Shown: positions 4,459-39,975 of the stretch, in pieces
How positions within the stretch are numbered: the first letter of the stretch is position 1
How the letters are laid out: the number at the start of each line of letters is the position of its first letter
Source: a bacterium
Lineage (GTDB): Bacteria > UBP6 > UBA1177
Reading direction: 5' to 3'
Assembly (NCBI GenBank): GCA_017538365.1
Contig: JAFYIZ010000028.1
Location: 52,962 to 116,961 of the forward strand
Length of the DNA: 64,000 nucleotides
Translations under genes and position numbers: made by a program
The notes under the pieces: model-generated
The model's database searches: none
What the model saw: the letters and a program-made list of their open reading frames with translations, nothing else
Told to the model about the DNA's origin: nothing

Positions 4459-7400
4459 TTGGAGGTTTTTATGTCTGGCGTTATCAAAACTTCGGAGGCT
4501 TTGAAAGTCAATCTGGCCGAAACTTTTGTTGCGGGTTACGAATTTTCCGAGCAGGAAAAATTCATTCTGAGCGCAGTTGAAAAGCATCCGCTTCTTGAAA
4601 AGAGGATGAGGACTTTCTTTCTAGAGCTCAACCATCCGTTTCCCAATTTTACCGAGGTAATCGAGGCTTACCGCTGGATCACGCTTGAAAATATGTGGGT
4701 TTTCGCTGATCTTGAAGAGAGCGACAAGCTGCTGAAACTTCTCGGTGACTATTTCATGCAGATTTTCTCGCAGAAGCTCGATATTCCGCAGCGCAACAGG
4801 CTCCGTCAGACTATTTTCAACGTCCTTGAACTCCTCTATAAAATTCTGCAGAGCAGCAAAATTTCGGACGAAGTTTTCAATTCTTATCTTGATATAACCG
4901 AAACGGTTCTTGCCGACGGCAATCCTGGGCTTATGGAAGCGTCGAGTTCGCTCAAAAAATATGTTGCCGAAATCTGCAAGGATGAGCGTTTCAGTGCCAG
5001 AATCTTCAAAATGCTCAAGCGCGTAATGACCATAAATCTGGACTACTGGAAAAATGTCGAATCGTTCTCAGACTGGCTTGAAAAGAGGACTATCGAACAC
5101 GGCGACGAGGCGCTGGAAATCGAAAACGCGATACTTTCGCAGTTTCCGCCGGAGCTTTTCACTGAGTGCGAAGAGGGAATTGAAAAGGCTGAAAAGTGCG
5201 AAGACTTCTTCAAACTGCCCGATTACACGTTTTTTACCGACAGATTCCGCAACACGATCGACTTTATTCCGACACCGATATGCAAAATCTACTACATTTT
5301 CTATCTGCTTGATTTTTCGTCTATGGAAAGTCTGCGCGAATACCTTCTTTTCGACCTCAACAGAACTCTGAAGATAGTTTCGATCGACGATGCGGGCGAG
5401 GCAAAACGCTTTATAACGCGCATGTTCGACTTTTTTAAACCCGTCAGAGAGCTTTTCCAGAGCGCGATTCTCGATTGTGTGAAAACGCTCGGAAAAGAGA
5501 TTGTAAAACGCGGCAGCGCGGCAATCTGCGACCACTTTTTTGATGCAGTCATCCGCTTCGGATTCGTTTATCCCGAACTTAAAGGTGTAAACTCCGACTG
5601 GCAGATGATAGTCGACAAAAACCACGTCAAAAACATAAGGACATGGCTTGAAATAATCGAAGTGAACCCCTCGAAAAGCACGAAACTTCTGTCGGCTCTT
5701 CTTGTAAATCTGAGGATCGGCGGCGTTTTTATCTCCGATACCGACCTTTTCCAGAGTGATGTTACGAAGTTTTTGAACAGCCAGATCGCGCCGGCTTACC
5801 ACATCGCGCGCCAGATCGCAGTTCTCTTCCCGGTTTACTTCAACGAGATCGGTGCTGAGGGCGAGCTTAGAAAAATTTCGACTGCGATTGACGAAATATG
5901 CCACAGAAAGGATCTGCTCACTCACTTTTTGAGAAAGCAGATTCACGCAGAGAGCAACAACACCCACATCCAGCTTGCAAAAGATGTCTTCATTTTCTGG
6001 CTCACCGGCAAAAAGGAACACCTTCAGAACAAGATTCCGAACGAAATTTACGAAACTCTCGAGCCGTCCGGCGAAATGTACGAAGGTCTGCACGAAGTCG
6101 CCCGTTTCGTAACGAGCAGGGTAAGAGGCGACTACGAAGCTCTTTTCACGATGAAACCTGCGGAAGTCGAGAAGATCATCGCCGATTTCGGAGCAGGTCA
6201 TGAAGTCGAGCAGAAAAAAGTCGGATACCTTTTCAACATTTATCTGCTTCTCAAGGAAAAATATTATCTCAATCCAGGCGATATTGCGAAAAAACTTAAG
6301 AAAATCACATATATACATCAGGCGACTATTGACGAGTTCGAGGCTGCAATGACTGCCGAGGACTGGAAAAGCGCAGTCAGAATCGCTTTCAAAATCATGT
6401 CCGCCCTCAAAAAGACGGTTCTTTCGGAAGAGCAGACCGAAGGAGTCGAAAACATCTACTACAAACGCCATATCGCAATCGGAATTCCTTCGATGTACGG
6501 CGAATACAGAGAGCCTAAATTCGAGGCTCTGGGCATGATTTACAGGATGGAGCAGCTTGTTTCGACGATGGTTGAAAAGCTGGTTTCAACTACAAAACTT
6601 CCTTATATTTCAGCCGACAATCTGCGTGAGACCTGCGAAATTCTCGAACTTTTCAGAGAAGGTCTGGAGCTCGGCGGTATCACGAGTGAAAATTTCAATT
6701 CCGACCTCAAGATGCTTGAATACAGCCTGGTTTCCTCAAGTTTCTCGCTGCATCAGTACACCAACATTTTCGAATTCTTTGCTGAGGATTTGAGCAAGAT
6801 CGTTTACGACTACTTCCTCGGAATCCACGATTCGAACCTCAAAATCGTCCTTGAACAGTACATTGAAAAGCACAATCTCACCGTTTCATCGGAAAAGGAC
6901 AAAGAGAAGATTATCCACAAGAAAAGCGAGGAATTCTACCGCGACATCATTTCGTCGTCATTCCTCATGCAGCAGATCGACAGCCTGATAAACTACCTTC
7001 TTTCGATTCTGCACGGCATACCGAAGAGCCTGACGCAGGAAGATATCCACATGATAATGACCTACAAGCGCAAATCGATAATTTCAGAAATCGACAAGAA
7101 GGATGACGAGCTCGACAACCAGGTTTTCTTCGGTGCGAAAGGGTATTTCCTGAAAAGAATCAAAGAGTACGGAATGCCGGTTCCGCACGGATTCATCCTT
7201 ACGACCGAGCTTTTCAGACGCCGCGAAGCGCTCATGAAACACCCCGAAATCGAGAAGGAAATTTATACGACGATATCAGATGAACTTGGCATTCTCGAGG
7301 AAAAAACGGGACTCCAGTACGGCAACCCGAACAATCCGCTCATGCTGTCGGTCAGAAGCGGTTCGGCAATGTCGATGCCCGGCGCGATGAACACTTTCCT

Positions 7401-8553
7401 CAATGTCGGAATGAACGACGAATTTGTCGAACAGCTCGCAAAAAGGGAAAATTACGGCTGGACTTCTTGGGACTGCTACAGACGGCTGATCCAGACCTGG
7501 GGCATGAATTTCGGTATCGACCGCGACTTGTTTGATGCAGTCATCGCCGATTTCAAAAAGGTTTACAAAGTCGAGAAAAAGATCGGTTTCAAGCCTGAAG
7601 TCATGAAACTTGTAGCCAAAGAATACATGAAGATTCTTGAAAGCCAGAAAGTGAAATTCGAGCAGAATCTCCACAAACAGCTTTTCACTTCGATCCACGC
7701 GGTTTTCGATTCGTGGAATTCGCGCCGTGCCCTTGTTTACCGCGACAAACTCCACATTGCAAGCGAGTGGGGAACTGCGGTCATCGTTCAGAAAATGGTG
7801 CTCGGAAACATCAACTACGACTCCGGAACGGGTGTTGTTTTCACGCGGGAACCCAACGGCAGAGGCAGAAAGGTATGTCTTTACGGCGATTTCGTAATGT
7901 GTTCGCAGGGTGAAGACATCGTCGGCGGTCTTGTTCACCCGTATCCGGTTTCGGAAAAGCAGAGACTTGAGATGAAAAACGCGCCTGATATCAGTATGGA
8001 AAAAGATTTTCCTGAAATATATTCGGCACTTAACGATATTTCAGTCGAACTTATCAACAAGCGCGGTTTCGGCCATCAGGAGATTGAATTCACCTTTGAA
8101 ACCTCGAAAAAACAGGATCTTCACATTCTCCAGATCCGTTCGTACCACCAGAACGACCTCATGCAGGAAGAGCTTGTTCCCGACAATCTGCCGCTGATAG
8201 GCGAGGGAACCGGCATCGGAAACAACGTCCTCACCGGAAGAGTCGTCTTCTCGATGGAAGACATCGAAAAATGCAAAAAACTCTATCCCGGCGAAAAGAT
8301 CATCGTTATGCGTCCCGACACCGTCAGTGACGATATCGACATGATTTTCGAAGCCGACGGACTGGTCACATCCCGCGGCGGAGCAACATCCCACGCGGCT
8401 GTTACGGCGGTCCGTCTCGGCAAAATCGGTGTCGTCAACTGTAAATCCCTCACCTTGGATGAAGTCAACAAAACCTTCACATTCGGCGGCGAAACTAAAA
8501 ACGTTCTCTGCACACTCACTATCGATGGCAGACGCGGATTCATTTACGGGTAG
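4459..8553 (+). CDS. 1364-aa multidomain protein: unknown N-terminal ~820 aa, then a PPDK/PEPS-like ATP-grasp nucleotide-binding domain and a PEP-utilizing phosphohistidine swivel domain; no PEP/pyruvate TIM-barrel domain
   Basis: The C-terminal third contains GAKGYFLKRIKEYGMPVPHGFILTTELF and LMLSVRSGSAMSMPGAMNTFLNVGMNDEFVEQLAKR, which matches the PPDK N-domain LSVRSGAxxSMPGMMDTxLNLGLND. It also has LVTSRGGATSHAAVTAVRLGKIGVV, the GGxTSHAAI phosphohistidine motif. The protein ends about 25 aa later. RBS ggagg precedes the ATG. Confidence 0.6.
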   Translation: MEVFMSGVIKTSEALKVNLAETFVAGYEFSEQEKFILSAVEKHPLLEKRMRTFFLELNHPFPNFTEVIEAYRWITLENMWVFADLEESDKLLKLLGDYFMQIFSQKLDIPQRNRLRQTIFNVLELLYKILQSSKISDEVFNSYLDITETVLADGNPGLMEASSSLKKYVAEICKDERFSARIFKMLKRVMTINLDYWKNVESFSDWLEKRTIEHGDEALEIENAILSQFPPELFTECEEGIEKAEKCEDFFKLPDYTFFTDRFRNTIDFIPTPICKIYYIFYLLDFSSMESLREYLLFDLNRTLKIVSIDDAGEAKRFITRMFDFFKPVRELFQSAILDCVKTLGKEIVKRGSAAICDHFFDAVIRFGFVYPELKGVNSDWQMIVDKNHVKNIRTWLEIIEVNPSKSTKLLSALLVNLRIGGVFISDTDLFQSDVTKFLNSQIAPAYHIARQIAVLFPVYFNEIGAEGELRKISTAIDEICHRKDLLTHFLRKQIHAESNNTHIQLAKDVFIFWLTGKKEHLQNKIPNEIYETLEPSGEMYEGLHEVARFVTSRVRGDYEALFTMKPAEVEKIIADFGAGHEVEQKKVGYLFNIYLLLKEKYYLNPGDIAKKLKKITYIHQATIDEFEAAMTAEDWKSAVRIAFKIMSALKKTVLSEEQTEGVENIYYKRHIAIGIPSMYGEYREPKFEALGMIYRMEQLVSTMVEKLVSTTKLPYISADNLRETCEILELFREGLELGGITSENFNSDLKMLEYSLVSSSFSLHQYTNIFEFFAEDLSKIVYDYFLGIHDSNLKIVLEQYIEKHNLTVSSEKDKEKIIHKKSEEFYRDIISSSFLMQQIDSLINYLLSILHGIPKSLTQEDIHMIMTYKRKSIISEIDKKDDELDNQVFFGAKGYFLKRIKEYGMPVPHGFILTTELFRRREALMKHPEIEKEIYTTISDELGILEEKTGLQYGNPNNPLMLSVRSGSAMSMPGAMNTFLNVGMNDEFVEQLAKRENYGWTSWDCYRRLIQTWGMNFGIDRDLFDAVIADFKKVYKVEKKIGFKPEVMKLVAKEYMKILESQKVKFEQNLHKQLFTSIHAVFDSWNSRRALVYRDKLHIASEWGTAVIVQKMVLGNINYDSGTGVVFTREPNGRGRKVCLYGDFVMCSQGEDIVGGLVHPYPVSEKQRLEMKNAPDISMEKDFPEIYSALNDISVELINKRGFGHQEIEFTFETSKKQDLHILQIRSYHQNDLMQEELVPDNLPLIGEGTGIGNNVLTGRVVFSMEDIEKCKKLYPGEKIIVMRPDTVSDDIDMIFEADGLVTSRGGATSHAAVTAVRLGKIGVVNCKSLTLDEVNKTFTFGGETKNVLCTLTIDGRRGFIYG

Positions 8554-9843: not shown

Positions 9844-9918
9844 TGGCGACCCCTAGCGGATTCGAACCGCTGTTAGCGGCGTGAGAGGCCGCCGTCCTAA
9901 CCGCTAGACGAAGGGGTC
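9844..9918 (-). tRNA. tRNA-Glu (anticodon CUC)
   Basis: Reverse complement: GACCCCUUCGUCUAGCGGUUAGGACGGCGGCCUCUCACGCCGCUAACAGCGGUUCGAAUCCGCUAGGGGUCGCCA. It folds as a cloverleaf with acceptor GACCCCU/AGGGGUC, anticodon stem GCGGC/GCCGC and loop CUCUCAC. CCA is encoded. Close to canonical tRNA-Glu. Confidence 0.85.
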
Positions 9919-9932
9919 ATTGCATGAATAAG

Positions 9933-10006
9933 TGGATCCCGAACAAGGATTCGAACCTTGATTGACGGAGCCAGAATCCGTAGTCCTGCCATTGGACGAT
10001 CCGGGA
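9933..10006 (-). tRNA. tRNA-Gln (anticodon CUG)
   Basis: Reverse complement: UCCCGGAUCGUCCAAUGGCAGGACUACGGAUUCUGGCUCCGUCAAUCAAGGUUCGAAUCCUUGUUCGGGAUCCA. Acceptor UCCCGGA/UUCGGGA, anticodon stem ACGGA/UCCGU, loop UUCUGGC, T-arm CAAGG-UUCGAAU-CCUUG. CCA is encoded. Confidence 0.8.
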
Positions 10007-14669: not shown

Positions 14670-14697
14670 TTGACCTTGAAAAATCAAGGTATATAAT
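14670..14697 (+). promoter_or_regulatory. Candidate lexA promoter (-35 TTGACC, 16-nt spacer, -10 TATAAT) overlapped by a perfect 7-4-7 palindrome ACCTTGA-AAAA-TCAAGGT; candidate LexA operator
   Basis: TTGACC at 14670-14675 and TATAAT at 14692-14697. Palindrome at 14673-14690. An extra TCAAGGT half-site lies at 14651-14657. lexA starts at 14731. Confidence 0.45.
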
Positions 14698-14730
14698 TGC
14701 CTGGATTTATGTTTTTTTGTGAGGTGAAAA

Positions 14731-15397: not shown

Positions 15398-15425
15398 TTG
15401 ACAACCTTATAAATACTGCTAATAT
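15398..15425 (+). promoter_or_regulatory. Candidate sigma70-type promoter for the downstream OMP gene
   Basis: TTGACA at 15398-15403, 16-nt spacer, TAATAT at 15420-15425. RBS gaggtg precedes the ATG at 15455. Confidence 0.35.
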
Positions 15426-15454
15426 TAGCGGTTTTTTTGTGAGGTGTGAAAATT

Positions 15455-37119: not shown

Positions 37120-37309
37120 GGTTCTCTTTGTTGACTTTATTCACCGCAAACCGATAATGCACAATCTTTTGGTTATTGATTGAATTGAGTAAATCATAAA
37201 AAAATCATGAGTAAATTTCCTGAATTCGACAAACAGGAAACCATTTTTAATCCGCATAACATTCGAATTTGTTTTATCGGAAAAGGGCGAAGAGCGTTTT
37301 TTTAAGGCG

Positions 37310-37325
37310 TTTTTTTTTTTTTTTT
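37310..37325. repeat. T16 homopolymer tract (intergenic)
   Basis: ggcg + 16 consecutive T + gaacc. It lies 90-110 nt upstream of the 37415/37433 start. Confidence 0.9.
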
Positions 37326-37432
37326 GAACCTTTACGTTTCCAAATCTGATAAAACAAAAAAATTGCATACCAAAATGGTAGCATTTTTTTCAACAAGGGC
37401 AGGTCTATTTTTTTGTGAACCCAGGAGAAAAA

Positions 37433-37906
37433 ATGACGAAAAAAACAGATGTTATGGTTTTGGTCGATCTGGTTAGGGCGCTCGGTTATAAAAATCCCGA
37501 AAAGCTCGCAAACTGGATCCGCGACATTATTAAAAAAAAGGAAGATTTCGACAAGCGGTTTCATATTGCAGGTCCGGAGCGCGATTTCGGCAGACGGGAA
37601 GAAAAGTTTCTGCTTGATGCTGATGCCGTAGTTCTGGTGGAAAATCTCTGCTTTCTCAAGCCTTACATGTCGTGTTTCGGAAAATCGATGGAAGACAGTC
37701 GGGAATTCCAGCCTTACAGGATTCTTGCCAAAGAGAAGGGTTTTAATAAGGCGGAACTCGAAAGAAAGTATAAACGGCTTCGCGCCGAACTTCAGGCAAT
37801 GAAAGAGGAAAGCGAAAATGCTCTTAGAGAACTTGAAACGTTCCACATGATTCTTGTTAGTGGTGAACCAATTGATATTACTAAAGAAAAGTTGGTTAAA
37901 AAGTGA
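37433..37906 (+). CDS. Hypothetical protein (about 158 aa), charged/coiled-coil C-terminus
   Basis: ORF with RBS ggagaaaaa. No recognisable domain. Confidence 0.4.
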   Translation: MTKKTDVMVLVDLVRALGYKNPEKLANWIRDIIKKKEDFDKRFHIAGPERDFGRREEKFLLDADAVVLVENLCFLKPYMSCFGKSMEDSREFQPYRILAKEKGFNKAELERKYKRLRAELQAMKEESENALRELETFHMILVSGEPIDITKEKLVKK

Positions 37907-37978
37907 TTTTTTTGACAACCAATTTGGTAGCAATAGCAGACTTTTGTTTTGTTTGTTTTATCGATTAAGGAGGGAAAA

Positions 37979-39100
37979 ATGAAAAAATTTCTTGTTTGCG
38001 CAGCTATGCTTGCTGCAATGGTTTTTATTGTTTCCTGCGGCGGCAGCGGTAGCGGAGGTGAAAGTTATTATCAGGAATGTGTTTACGGGGATTATGTCTG
38101 CAAATATGGAGATTCCTACTACTGCGGCTATTCCGGCAACGATTTGAGGTGGATGCTTGCAGAGCATTGTGAGTATTGCGATTCATGGACCGGAAAATGC
38201 GACAACAGTCACAGCAGTGATTCAGAGTGTTCTGCCGGGCAATATAAGTGTGACGGCTCTTATTCCTACTCTTGTTACAATGGCTACTGGAGCTATGATG
38301 CTTACTGCGATTACGGTTGCAATTCTTCTACAGGAAAATGCAACAGCAGTTCTAACGACGATAACGACAGTTCTCTGAACTTGTCATGCATGTCGATTTA
38401 CAGCTGCTATGCTGATTGCGAAGACAATGCATGTGCACAAAATTGTGTGGACAATGGCTCTGAAACCGGTCAGCGTCAATTTTACGAAATGTATGAATGT
38501 TGGATAGACAACTGCTCGGATGCAACAACTGATGATGAATTTACAGAGTGTGTATACAGCAACTGTTCAAAAGAAATGAAAGACTGCGGATTTACTGTTC
38601 CGGACGGCAATAATGATCCTACTAATCCCAGTGATCCCACCACTGATCCATCTGATGAATGTGCCGAAGGTTTGTTCTACTATCAGGGAACATGCCAGAG
38701 TCCGTGGGGCAAAAAATGGATAGTCACTTTTATAAGTGCAAAAGTTGCTGAAAAAAATGCTGACGATGAAGCGTGGGATGGCTTGGGCGGCCTGCCGGAT
38801 CTTTTTGCTGTTGTAAAAATCAACGGTAAAGAAGTCTTTAGAACAATTGAAGGTAGTGACTCCACTGCTGCGACATGGAATGAAGATGCTACAATAGATT
38901 TCTCTGCAAAAACTGACAAAATCACCTATTGTCTTTACGACGGTGATGCTGTCGGCGGAGATACAAGTTCAGACCTGGCATCTTCGAACGATGAAGTAGG
39001 CTGCTGGGATCATGAATTTGAATGGTTCAGCCTTGATAAAGTAACCATTACTTCAGACGTTGTCGACCACTTTGATTTTTCTCTTGAACCGGCTTGGTAA
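37979..39100 (+). CDS. Cys-rich lipoprotein with a C-terminal C2-like beta-sandwich segment, hypothetical
   Basis: MKKFLVCAAMLAAMVFIVSCGGSGSGG. Repeated C..G.Y.C..G motifs. C-terminal WIVTFISAKVAEKNADDEAWDGLGGLPDLFAVVKINGKEVFRT. Confidence 0.5.
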   Translation: MKKFLVCAAMLAAMVFIVSCGGSGSGGESYYQECVYGDYVCKYGDSYYCGYSGNDLRWMLAEHCEYCDSWTGKCDNSHSSDSECSAGQYKCDGSYSYSCYNGYWSYDAYCDYGCNSSTGKCNSSSNDDNDSSLNLSCMSIYSCYADCEDNACAQNCVDNGSETGQRQFYEMYECWIDNCSDATTDDEFTECVYSNCSKEMKDCGFTVPDGNNDPTNPSDPTTDPSDECAEGLFYYQGTCQSPWGKKWIVTFISAKVAEKNADDEAWDGLGGLPDLFAVVKINGKEVFRTIEGSDSTAATWNEDATIDFSAKTDKITYCLYDGDAVGGDTSSDLASSNDEVGCWDHEFEWFSLDKVTITSDVVDHFDFSLEPAW

Positions 39101-39189
39101 ACTGTTGTTTCCACTTAATCCCTAACAAAAATTGTCATTTTTTGATTTCTGCCTAAAATTGATCGGTTTTTTTGTTTATGGAGGCAAAA

Positions 39190-39870
39190 ATGAAAAAGAT
39201 TTCTTTGTTTGTGTTAATGATTTTCGGAATTTTCATGCTCTTTGCGGTTGATGCTGCGCCTGAAACGGCTCAAGAATCTGTCGAAACGACTCCGGAACAG
39301 GCAGAGCCGGCTGAAAACGCGCAGGAACCTGCCGCTGAACCCGAACAACCTGCTGAAAGTATGCAGCAGCCTGTAGAGACTGCTCCTGAGGCATCTGCCG
39401 AAACAGCACAACCCGCTGAAACAGTGCAGGAACCCGTAGAGATGTTACCTGAAACGTCTCCAGAACCTGAACAACCTGCTGAACCTGCACAACCCCGTTC
39501 TGAAAAACCGCAGAAAATCAAATATTACAGACCTTACCTCGGTGCCGGAATTCCGCTTATCGTCATAGGTTCGGTATCTTTTGCACTTATGATGCCGGCT
39601 ATGGGAACTATGGCGTTTGCCGCTTCAGACGCATGTGAAGGTAAGGATTGGGATTTCTGCGAAGAACTTCACGACAACAATAAAAAACACCACACCGCGT
39701 GGACGGTAGGTTCCGTTATGACGGGAGTCGTCGGCGCTGGAATGATCGCAGTCGGATCGTGGCTGACAAGTGTTGAAAAACCGAGAGAAAATCAGTGTGT
39801 TACACTGGAAGGTGTCGCAGTTCTTCCGACCAAAGACGGAATGTATGCTTCCATAGGTCTGGGTTTCTAA
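39190..39870 (+). CDS. Membrane-anchored protein with a Pro/Glu/Ala-rich repeat region (PEQAEPAE-type repeats) and C-terminal transmembrane helices
   Basis: Signal MKKISLFVLMIFGIFMLFAVDA. Repeats EPAENAQEPAAEPEQPAE. C-terminal hydrophobic segments. Confidence 0.5.
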   Translation: MKKISLFVLMIFGIFMLFAVDAAPETAQESVETTPEQAEPAENAQEPAAEPEQPAESMQQPVETAPEASAETAQPAETVQEPVEMLPETSPEPEQPAEPAQPRSEKPQKIKYYRPYLGAGIPLIVIGSVSFALMMPAMGTMAFAASDACEGKDWDFCEELHDNNKKHHTAWTVGSVMTGVVGAGMIAVGSWLTSVEKPRENQCVTLEGVAVLPTKDGMYASIGLGF

Positions 39871-39975
39871 CCGTATTTTCTTAATTTCCGAAGCCGGAAA
39901 ATCATCATCTTAAATTGACAATTTACTCTTCATCTTTAGAATATTCCGCTTATGTTTTTTTGAGTGGAGAGAATT

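Follow-up and report, generated by a model that had tools for sequence, protein, structure and literature searches.

Does a run of 16 T in front of a small gene of an uncultured rumen bacterium act on the expression of the genes behind it, or is it a repeat that grew by slippage and drifts without effect? The run lies in a 64,000-nt stretch of DNA (the window) for which a first, sequence-only reading had proposed that length changes in the tract could alter promoter spacing or UP-element activity and would thereby give variable expression of a cluster of three surface proteins.

A long homopolymer in an intergenic region

The tract is found at 37310-37325 of the plus strand, exactly where the first reading had placed it, with AAGGCG directly 5' and GAACC directly 3', and lies within a T-rich variable spacer. 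No other homopolymer in the 64 kb window exceeds 8 nt. Counts of A/T runs in the window drop about 2.8-fold per extra base and end at 8; runs of at least 16 are expected 0.006 times by extrapolation of this decay and 0.007 times under a first-order Markov model. In 168 kb of related loci there is likewise no homopolymer of at least 10 nt apart from this T tract. In repeat length the tract is of the kind found at simple-sequence contingency loci, that is, capable of slippage and far above compositional expectation.

Other details of the first description required correction. The intergenic region between the upstream DUF4130/TIGR03915 gene and the first downstream gene, here called orf157, measures 313 nt (37120-37432, plus strand) rather than 295 nt. 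The tract begins 123 nt and ends 107 nt before the ATG at 37433, a little farther out than the 90-110 nt first estimated, and the protein encoded there has 157 rather than 158 residues. A 7-bp inverted repeat assigned to 37215-37239 is shifted one base to the right, with TTTCCTG at 37216-37222 and CAGGAAA at 37234-37240. It is no better than chance, as 42% of spacer shuffles hold at least one such repeat (loop of 3-20 nt).

Rfam gave zero matches in the spacer or in the upstream regions of relatives. The sole gathering-level Rfam matches in the window are two adjoining tRNA genes on the minus strand at 9847-10006.

Length polymorphism among strains

Ten loci encoding an identical orf157 protein were obtained by exact-protein look-up from several rumen metagenome projects and MAGs, some of which may derive from shared underlying samples. 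Nine give a tract length, with identical flanks: 14, 14, 15, 16, 16, 17, 17, 18 and 18 T. The tenth, Logan contig L007, starts inside the tract, and this break is a hint of mixed tract lengths within a population. Two of the loci (L001 and L006) match the window at 100% identity, T16 included. A third, L004, shows a single difference from the window over 6475 nt, T15 against T16, with 0 mismatches, where a step of one at a 16-nt homopolymer in short-read assemblies such as these may be Illumina or assembly error. Tract length changed here while the surrounding 6.5 kb gained zero substitutions.

The remaining loci fall into three sub-lineages whose flanking genes are 3-8% off the window. Within each, two separate assemblies agree in tract length: L002 and L003 have T17, L005 and L009 have T18, and L008 and L010 correspond at T14. 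Tract length being identical within sub-lineages, it is a reproducible, heritable property of the strain and not random assembly noise. As a control, a T7 run in six assemblies of the L013 group is invariant, as are other runs of 7-8 nt save one A7/A8. The run of A7 directly 5' of the hexamer TTGCAT (37356-37362, plus strand) is A8 in sub-lineage D (L005 and L009), so that the spacer has a further length polymorphism, of smaller extent. The proneness to slippage read from the sequence is thereby borne out, and the comparison of tract length across strains by which the first reading proposed to check it was positive, at T14-T18 between strains with otherwise identical flanks. The tract is real, far beyond chance, and heritably polymorphic within one species-level lineage.

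The spacer that carries the tract differs little among these strains. The intergenic region 37120-37432 shows 99-100% identity where flanking genes are 3-8% divergent. The 787-nt block made up of spacer and orf157 (37120-37906) has 0-4 mismatches against L002, L005, L008, L009 and L010, as has the 313-nt spacer by itself, an identity partly biased by the choice of loci for an identical orf157 protein. Synonymous and non-coding sites of the block are identical too, which suggests recent recombination or a sweep of the block. Further searches added little: a scan of JGI metagenomes with a flank pattern bridging the tract gave 0 matches, and a scan of contigs with the upstream DUF4130 protein gave only 32%-identical Verrucomicrobia and Lentisphaerae MAGs and no species-level comparison.

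Expansion and deletion in the same lineage

Relatives whose orf157 proteins are 94, 90, 89, 75 and 61% identical to that of the window carry just T4-T7 at the homologous site, within a variable T-rich segment; the expansion to a long tract is therefore specific to the window lineage. The homologous spacer in these relatives varies freely in sequence and ranges in length from 20 to about 60 nt. Judged from this comparison, the tract arose from a T4-T7 run; the T-rich part in which that run lay is the least conserved of an upstream region that is otherwise highly conserved. The relatives share a gene order of orf157, a variable lipoprotein, a Pro/Glu-rich (P/E-rich) protein and an aconitase-family gene. 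A scan of JGI metagenomes for the operator pattern described below added one true relative, L050, which is without a long T run, among 20 chance matches.

The lineage that carries the expansion has also undergone a deletion. In relatives, a gene of about 680 aa with no Pfam match sits between the DUF4130/radical-SAM genes and orf157. In the window, 37207-37243 (plus strand) matches the opening 12 codons of this gene (MSKFPEFDKQET) at 84-89% identity; the Shine-Dalgarno sequence is lost, and the inverted repeat mentioned above is held within the remnant, its arms being the codons F-P-E ... Q-E. The junction, at about 37243/37244 with CA microhomology, joins the remnant to the distal 190 nt or so of the upstream region of relatives. 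The deletion removed the 680-aa gene together with half of that upstream region, and the scar (37207-37305) leaves a 32-codon ORF lacking a Shine-Dalgarno sequence. A kinship of the 680-aa protein with the long proteins that contain an orf157 domain (see below) was considered and rejected; it is not a relative.

Small ORFs run across the tract on both strands (75 aa on the minus strand, 32 aa on the plus strand), and neither is conserved in relatives. A coding frameshift switch was rejected for this reason; the plus-strand ORF is the gene remnant.

The upstream region of relatives, about 390-430 nt of non-coding sequence 5' of orf157, is more conserved than the neighbouring genes (L013:3611-4000, L019:3621-4000, L025:3596-4000, L026:3608-4000, L027:690-1078 and L029:2613-3000). 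It opens with a promoter-like TTGATT-16-TAAAAT, after which four hairpin or multibranch elements are conserved (A4 columns 20-185). It is the 5' half of this region that is deleted in the window lineage. The whole region is a candidate for a new structured leader or small RNA, with no Rfam family.

Genes flanking the tract

On the 5' side of the spacer, on the same strand, lie a radical-SAM gene (TIGR03916) and its partner, the DUF4130/TIGR03915 gene; an aconitase-family large subunit follows the P/E-rich gene on the 3' side. Two members of the three-gene cluster proposed in the first reading are as described. The Cys-rich lipoprotein (37979-39100, plus strand) has 373 aa, 28 Cys and a borderline match to Pfam C2 (22.3 bits against a cut-off of 22). 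Its signal, MKKFLVCAAMLAAMVFIVSC-GG, combines a hydrophobic N-terminus (KD19 2.35) with a lipobox, IVSC, recognised by inspection. The P/E-rich membrane protein (39190-39870, plus strand) likewise carries a signal sequence. The label of a surface-protein cluster holds for these two and fails for orf157 (37433-37906, plus strand), which has neither signal peptide nor transmembrane segment. With a maximal 19-residue Kyte-Doolittle score of 1.25, orf157 contains no hydrophobic segment and is therefore not a surface protein, but cytoplasmic. The lipoprotein gene is preceded by a promoter-like site of its own, TTGACA-16-TAGCAG (37912-37939, plus strand), and the P/E-rich gene by a sigma-70-like promoter, TTGTCA-16-TAAAAT (39132-39159, plus strand), so that the tract directly precedes only orf157.

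The lipoprotein itself is variable. In L002, L003, L008 and L010 its body (38049-39127) is swapped for unrelated sequence, giving a 301-aa allele in place of the 373-aa C2-like one; the part common to the alleles is limited to the signal peptide and the first Cys-rich module. In more distant relatives the same slot holds proteins of 299-556 aa, some with an Lcl_C domain. Elsewhere in the window, a 1360-aa protein is encoded at 4471-8553, of which just residues 880-1328 or so match pyruvate-phosphate dikinase / PEP synthase models; no NCBIfam model matched the first 880 or so.

Promoter-like sites around the tract

Promoters in the window are uniform in layout: TTGACW, a spacer nearly always of 16 nt, TATAAT, 6-14 nt, a T-run ending in G, and GGAG, with 15-60 nt between the end of the -10 hexamer and the ATG. 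The layout recurs across the intergenic regions of the window (e.g. 14670-14730, 15398-15454 and 39915-39975), and the T-run/G motif (TTTTTTTG), 6-14 nt past the -10, falls near the presumed transcript start. A position weight matrix (PWM) built from the window's own promoters, for which the 95th percentile of coding windows is 10.6, gives best scores of 9.5-16.6 before most other genes of the window.

Within the spacer, decent sigma-70-like sites lie exclusively 5' of the tract. The best canonical one is TTGACT-16-GATAAT at 37131-37158 (plus strand, score 11.0), with TTTTGG 8 nt later; a second promoter-like site at 37176 scores 11.7. On the 3' side the highest-scoring sites reach 8.0, 5.6 (TTGAAC-18-GATAAA, which borders the tract) and 3.8. 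No -35/-10 pair bracketing or abutting 37310-37325 was detected with the matrix, and for TTGAAC, which borders the tract on its 3' side, a usable -10 at a distance of 16-18 nt is lacking. The closest -35-like hexamer, TTGCAT (37363-37368), is 37 bp 3' of the tract, and the UP-proximal position in front of it is occupied by AAAACAAAAAAA. A mechanism by promoter spacing or UP-element activity, as first proposed, finds no footing in this arrangement.

Conserved on the 3' side of the tract are AAAC-A6-7-TTGCAT and, immediately after it, a palindrome, ACCA-AAA-TGGT-AG. Closer to the gene, the TTTTTTTG motif at 37408-37415 and the Shine-Dalgarno sequence AGGAG at 37423-37427 (both plus strand) reproduce the layout usual in the window past a -10. 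The distance from the palindrome to the ATG is constant, which argues for a proximal, factor-dependent promoter. The matrix scores and the canonical site upstream also point to a second route, by which the tract may be transcribed from the upstream site. If the promoter at 37131-37158 is active, the tract would be transcribed as U16 in a leader of about 270 nt.

The orf157 family and a putative palindromic operator

The orf157 protein has no match in Pfam, NCBIfam, PHROG or the PDB sequences, and MerR HTH models were likewise unmatched. Its family comprises 15 clusters, all metagenomic. A profile search of 1.8 billion representatives gave 59 relatives (P0196-P0253 among them), most of them 620-690 aa long, and the orf157 domain makes up their N-terminal 150 aa or so, with weak TPR matches after it; orf157 is a stand-alone copy of this domain. 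L051 has the long form split between two genes, the first encoding 157 aa and the second 459 aa with a faint TPR match. One further protein, P0005 (210 aa), was set aside as an uninformative variant with a chimeric C-terminus. The AF2 model of orf157 is confident and contains helix-helix-wing elements and a long C-terminal helix. In this it may resemble the MerR superfamily, with a predicted helix-helix-wing N-terminal part followed by a long helix of the dimerisation type.

The hexamer TTGCAT and the palindrome abutting it, ACCA-AAA-TGGT(AG), together span 37363-37381 (plus strand), and the palindrome itself, at 37369-37381, constitutes a putative operator 43 bp 3' of the tract. It is invariant on the orf157 side in all relatives, down to 61% protein identity. 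The 64 kb contain exactly two copies of the motif ACCAAWWTGGTAG, where 0.1 would be expected, one before orf157 and one before the lipoprotein gene. The second copy (ACCAATTTGGTAG, 37918-37930) follows immediately on the perfect TTGACA in the 72 nt that precede the lipoprotein gene, within the spacer of the promoter-like site there. All but three related loci have the palindrome at both places. Related palindromes also precede orf157-domain genes of 42-46% identity in unrelated gene contexts: CTACCAATTTGGTAG at -66 in L054 (position 1313), centred in TTGATT-20-TAAAGT, and GCCAATTTGGTA at -53 in L051 (position 2948).

The palindrome, between a -35-like hexamer and the -10 position, would fit an operator of the MerR type; L054 has it in the centre of a 20-bp spacer, a MerR-like layout. 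In the window the spacer is 16 bp, and the palindrome follows TTGCAT or TTGACA at the two genes. Taken together, the predicted fold and a palindrome that travels with the family make a DNA-binding autoregulator plausible: orf157 may be a small helical, possibly winged-helix, DNA-binding protein, and (CT)ACCA-N3-TGGT(AG) is probably the operator of the family, for which it is the candidate.

A conserved hairpin around the tract

The T-rich spacer, T16 included, forms the apical part of a long imperfect hairpin (37268-37358, plus strand) that occurs in all relatives and is rich in G.U pairs. In every lineage the flanks of the T-rich segment can form about 28 pairs, TTTGTTTTATCGGAAAAGGGCGAAGAGCG with GAACCTTTACGTTTCC...CTGATAAAACAAA. 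Across the alignment 92% of the hairpin cells are in pairs, a share that falls to 45-66% if the partner arm is displaced by 1-3 columns. Changes on one side that preserve the pair are numerous; just one pair is altered on both sides. Against shuffles, the hairpin folds with z of -1.9 to -5.3 on the plus strand and of 0 to -1.1 on the minus strand. That the plus strand only folds better than shuffles fits G.U-rich pairing in RNA. The RNA fold of the whole spacer is not significant (z -1.4), and the spacer holds no G+C-rich hairpin of the kind that would terminate an upstream operon.

In the window lineage a weak local hairpin arises by pairing of GAAGAG with about six U of the tract. The position of the tract within these structures supports two views, that it sits where variation is tolerated or that it created a weak attenuator.

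Explanations for the tract

The reading we favour, and hold tentatively, is that the tract is a slippage-prone repeat which tunes orf157 in a graded way, its effect on expression being putative. In its favour count the heritable polymorphism, the invariance of shorter control runs, the confinement of the expansion to one lineage, the constraint on the regulatory region, the palindrome before both orf157 and the lipoprotein gene, and the precedents of sabA and S. pyogenes M28 described below. If changes in length have an effect, it would be graded tuning and not ON/OFF switching. The gene affected would be orf157, whose product is probably DNA-binding and whose putative ACCA-N3-TGGT operator is also found in the promoter spacer of the adjacent lipoprotein gene; any effect on the lipoprotein would be indirect, by way of orf157. 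Two routes can be envisaged. By the first, the tract would shift the conserved upstream block (37245-37309) in distance and helical phase relative to the operator/promoter block (37351-37415). By the second, the region would be transcribed from the upstream promoter and the tract would alter the apical part of the conserved leader hairpin. Against such tuning stand the free variation of the homologous spacer in relatives, which leaves spacing weakly constrained, the apical position in the hairpin, where insertions are usually tolerated, and the fact that the tract neither separates nor adjoins recognisable -35 and -10 elements.

A neutral expansion is almost as likely as the tuning of orf157. 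A T-rich loop or spacer free of constraint would have grown by slippage once the deletion had occurred, and would now drift as a mutational hot spot, without effect on expression. The tract takes the place of the most variable segment of the region, for which relatives hold unrelated sequence, and it occupies the apex of a conserved hairpin and no recognisable promoter element. The block that carries it is near-identical among strains, so that the tract may be young and not yet decayed. Neutrality fits less well, however, with the rarity of long runs. Runs above 8 nt are otherwise absent from the 64 kb of the window and the 168 kb of the clade, a sign that such runs are as a rule either not tolerated or not formed in the first place. 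In all four sub-lineages the tract stays at 14 T or more, and in none has it shrunk below 10. The tract is also near a conserved putative operator, in a spacer that is otherwise strongly constrained.

It is improbable that the tract arose as an attenuator or terminator. Transcription from the leftover promoter of the deleted gene (37131-37158) would here meet a weak hairpin and a U-run that cut read-through into orf157, and the expanded U-run would restore an insulation lost through the deletion. A canonical promoter-like site does lie 5' of the tract and none 3', expansion is confined to the deletion lineage, and the local hairpin, GAAGAGCGUUUU-UUU-AAGGCGUUUUUU, with -7.7 kcal/mol (-12.1 with extension), is followed by 8-12 U in every allele. 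However, of the 12 pairs of its stem just 2 are G-C and the rest A-U and G.U, and despite the U-run it was not called by the terminator scan. The same 5' arm is taken by the competing conserved long hairpin, the promoter scores marginally above the coding background, and terminator-like sites in the genome show no clear enrichment (31 found against 23 expected).

Classical phase variation of a three-gene surface-protein operon through a promoter spacer or UP-element, the model of the sequence-only reading, is very improbable: the tract is polymorphic in length, and the TTGAAC that adjoins its 3' end looks like a -35 and shows partial conservation among relatives, but that hexamer has no usable -10 in an organism whose promoters almost always have a 16-nt spacer, orf157 is not a surface protein, and the lipoprotein and P/E-rich genes have promoter-like sites of their own.

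Comparison with known homopolymeric tracts

Several homopolymers that lie between a -35 and a -10, among them the poly-C of Bordetella fim, the poly-G/C of Neisseria porA and opc and the poly-A of Mycoplasma hyorhinis vlp, switch expression ON and OFF through the length of the promoter spacer. With these the present tract shares a non-coding position 5' of genes for envelope proteins and a length that changes by slippage; unlike them, it does not fall between a -35 and a -10 by the PWM.

The tract of Helicobacter pylori sabA is a promoter-proximal rheostat, studied at T9-T18, that varies between strains by slipped-strand mispairing (PMC4081817). It adjoins the -35 element, with UP-like A-boxes 5', and its effect has been demonstrated experimentally (Aberg et al. 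2014, PMC4081817). The tract described here is likewise an intergenic poly-T of similar length that varies between strains, and the effect proposed for it is graded, through the phasing of upstream DNA against the core promoter. It differs in lying 37 bp from the closest -35-like hexamer, with no canonical -10 after it, in preceding a gene that encodes no adhesin, and in having a putative effect. As it shares with sabA the length polymorphism and lacks the adjacency to a -35 described there (PMC4081817), it is best filed in the general class of intergenic homopolymeric repeats.

In Streptococcus pyogenes M28, natural populations are polymorphic for the homopolymeric T tract that separates Spy1336/R28 from Spy1337 (Eraso et al. 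2020, PMC7098570), and effects on transcripts and virulence were demonstrated with isogenic mutants (PMC7098570). There too a polymorphic poly-T spacer stands beside a regulator gene and a variable surface-protein gene. In M28, however, the two genes flank the tract, whereas here the genes are co-directional and the role of orf157 as a regulator is a prediction.

Significance for the organism and the family

Contingency loci based on repeats are known almost entirely from cultured pathogens. The present result is a modest one: the homopolymer is real and polymorphic, its regulatory effect putative and perhaps nil. Should the tuning of orf157 be true, the contingency strategy would extend to an uncultured rumen commensal, with the tract beside a regulator and a hypervariable lipoprotein. 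In its most far-reaching form the proposal would make the young tract a contingency switch on an undescribed family of small DNA-binding regulators, in which the regulator would set the level of the hypervariable lipoprotein by way of the shared operator. The tract would then act at the RNA level, as the apical loop or an alternative stem of the conserved leader hairpin, and its length would tune attenuation. We consider that form unlikely; if true, a gut commensal would have a 'regulator rheostat' driven by a repeat and working via a new cis-RNA element. The side findings may outweigh the tract itself: a domain family with a palindrome that travels with it, a hairpin-rich upstream region and a stereotyped promoter layout.
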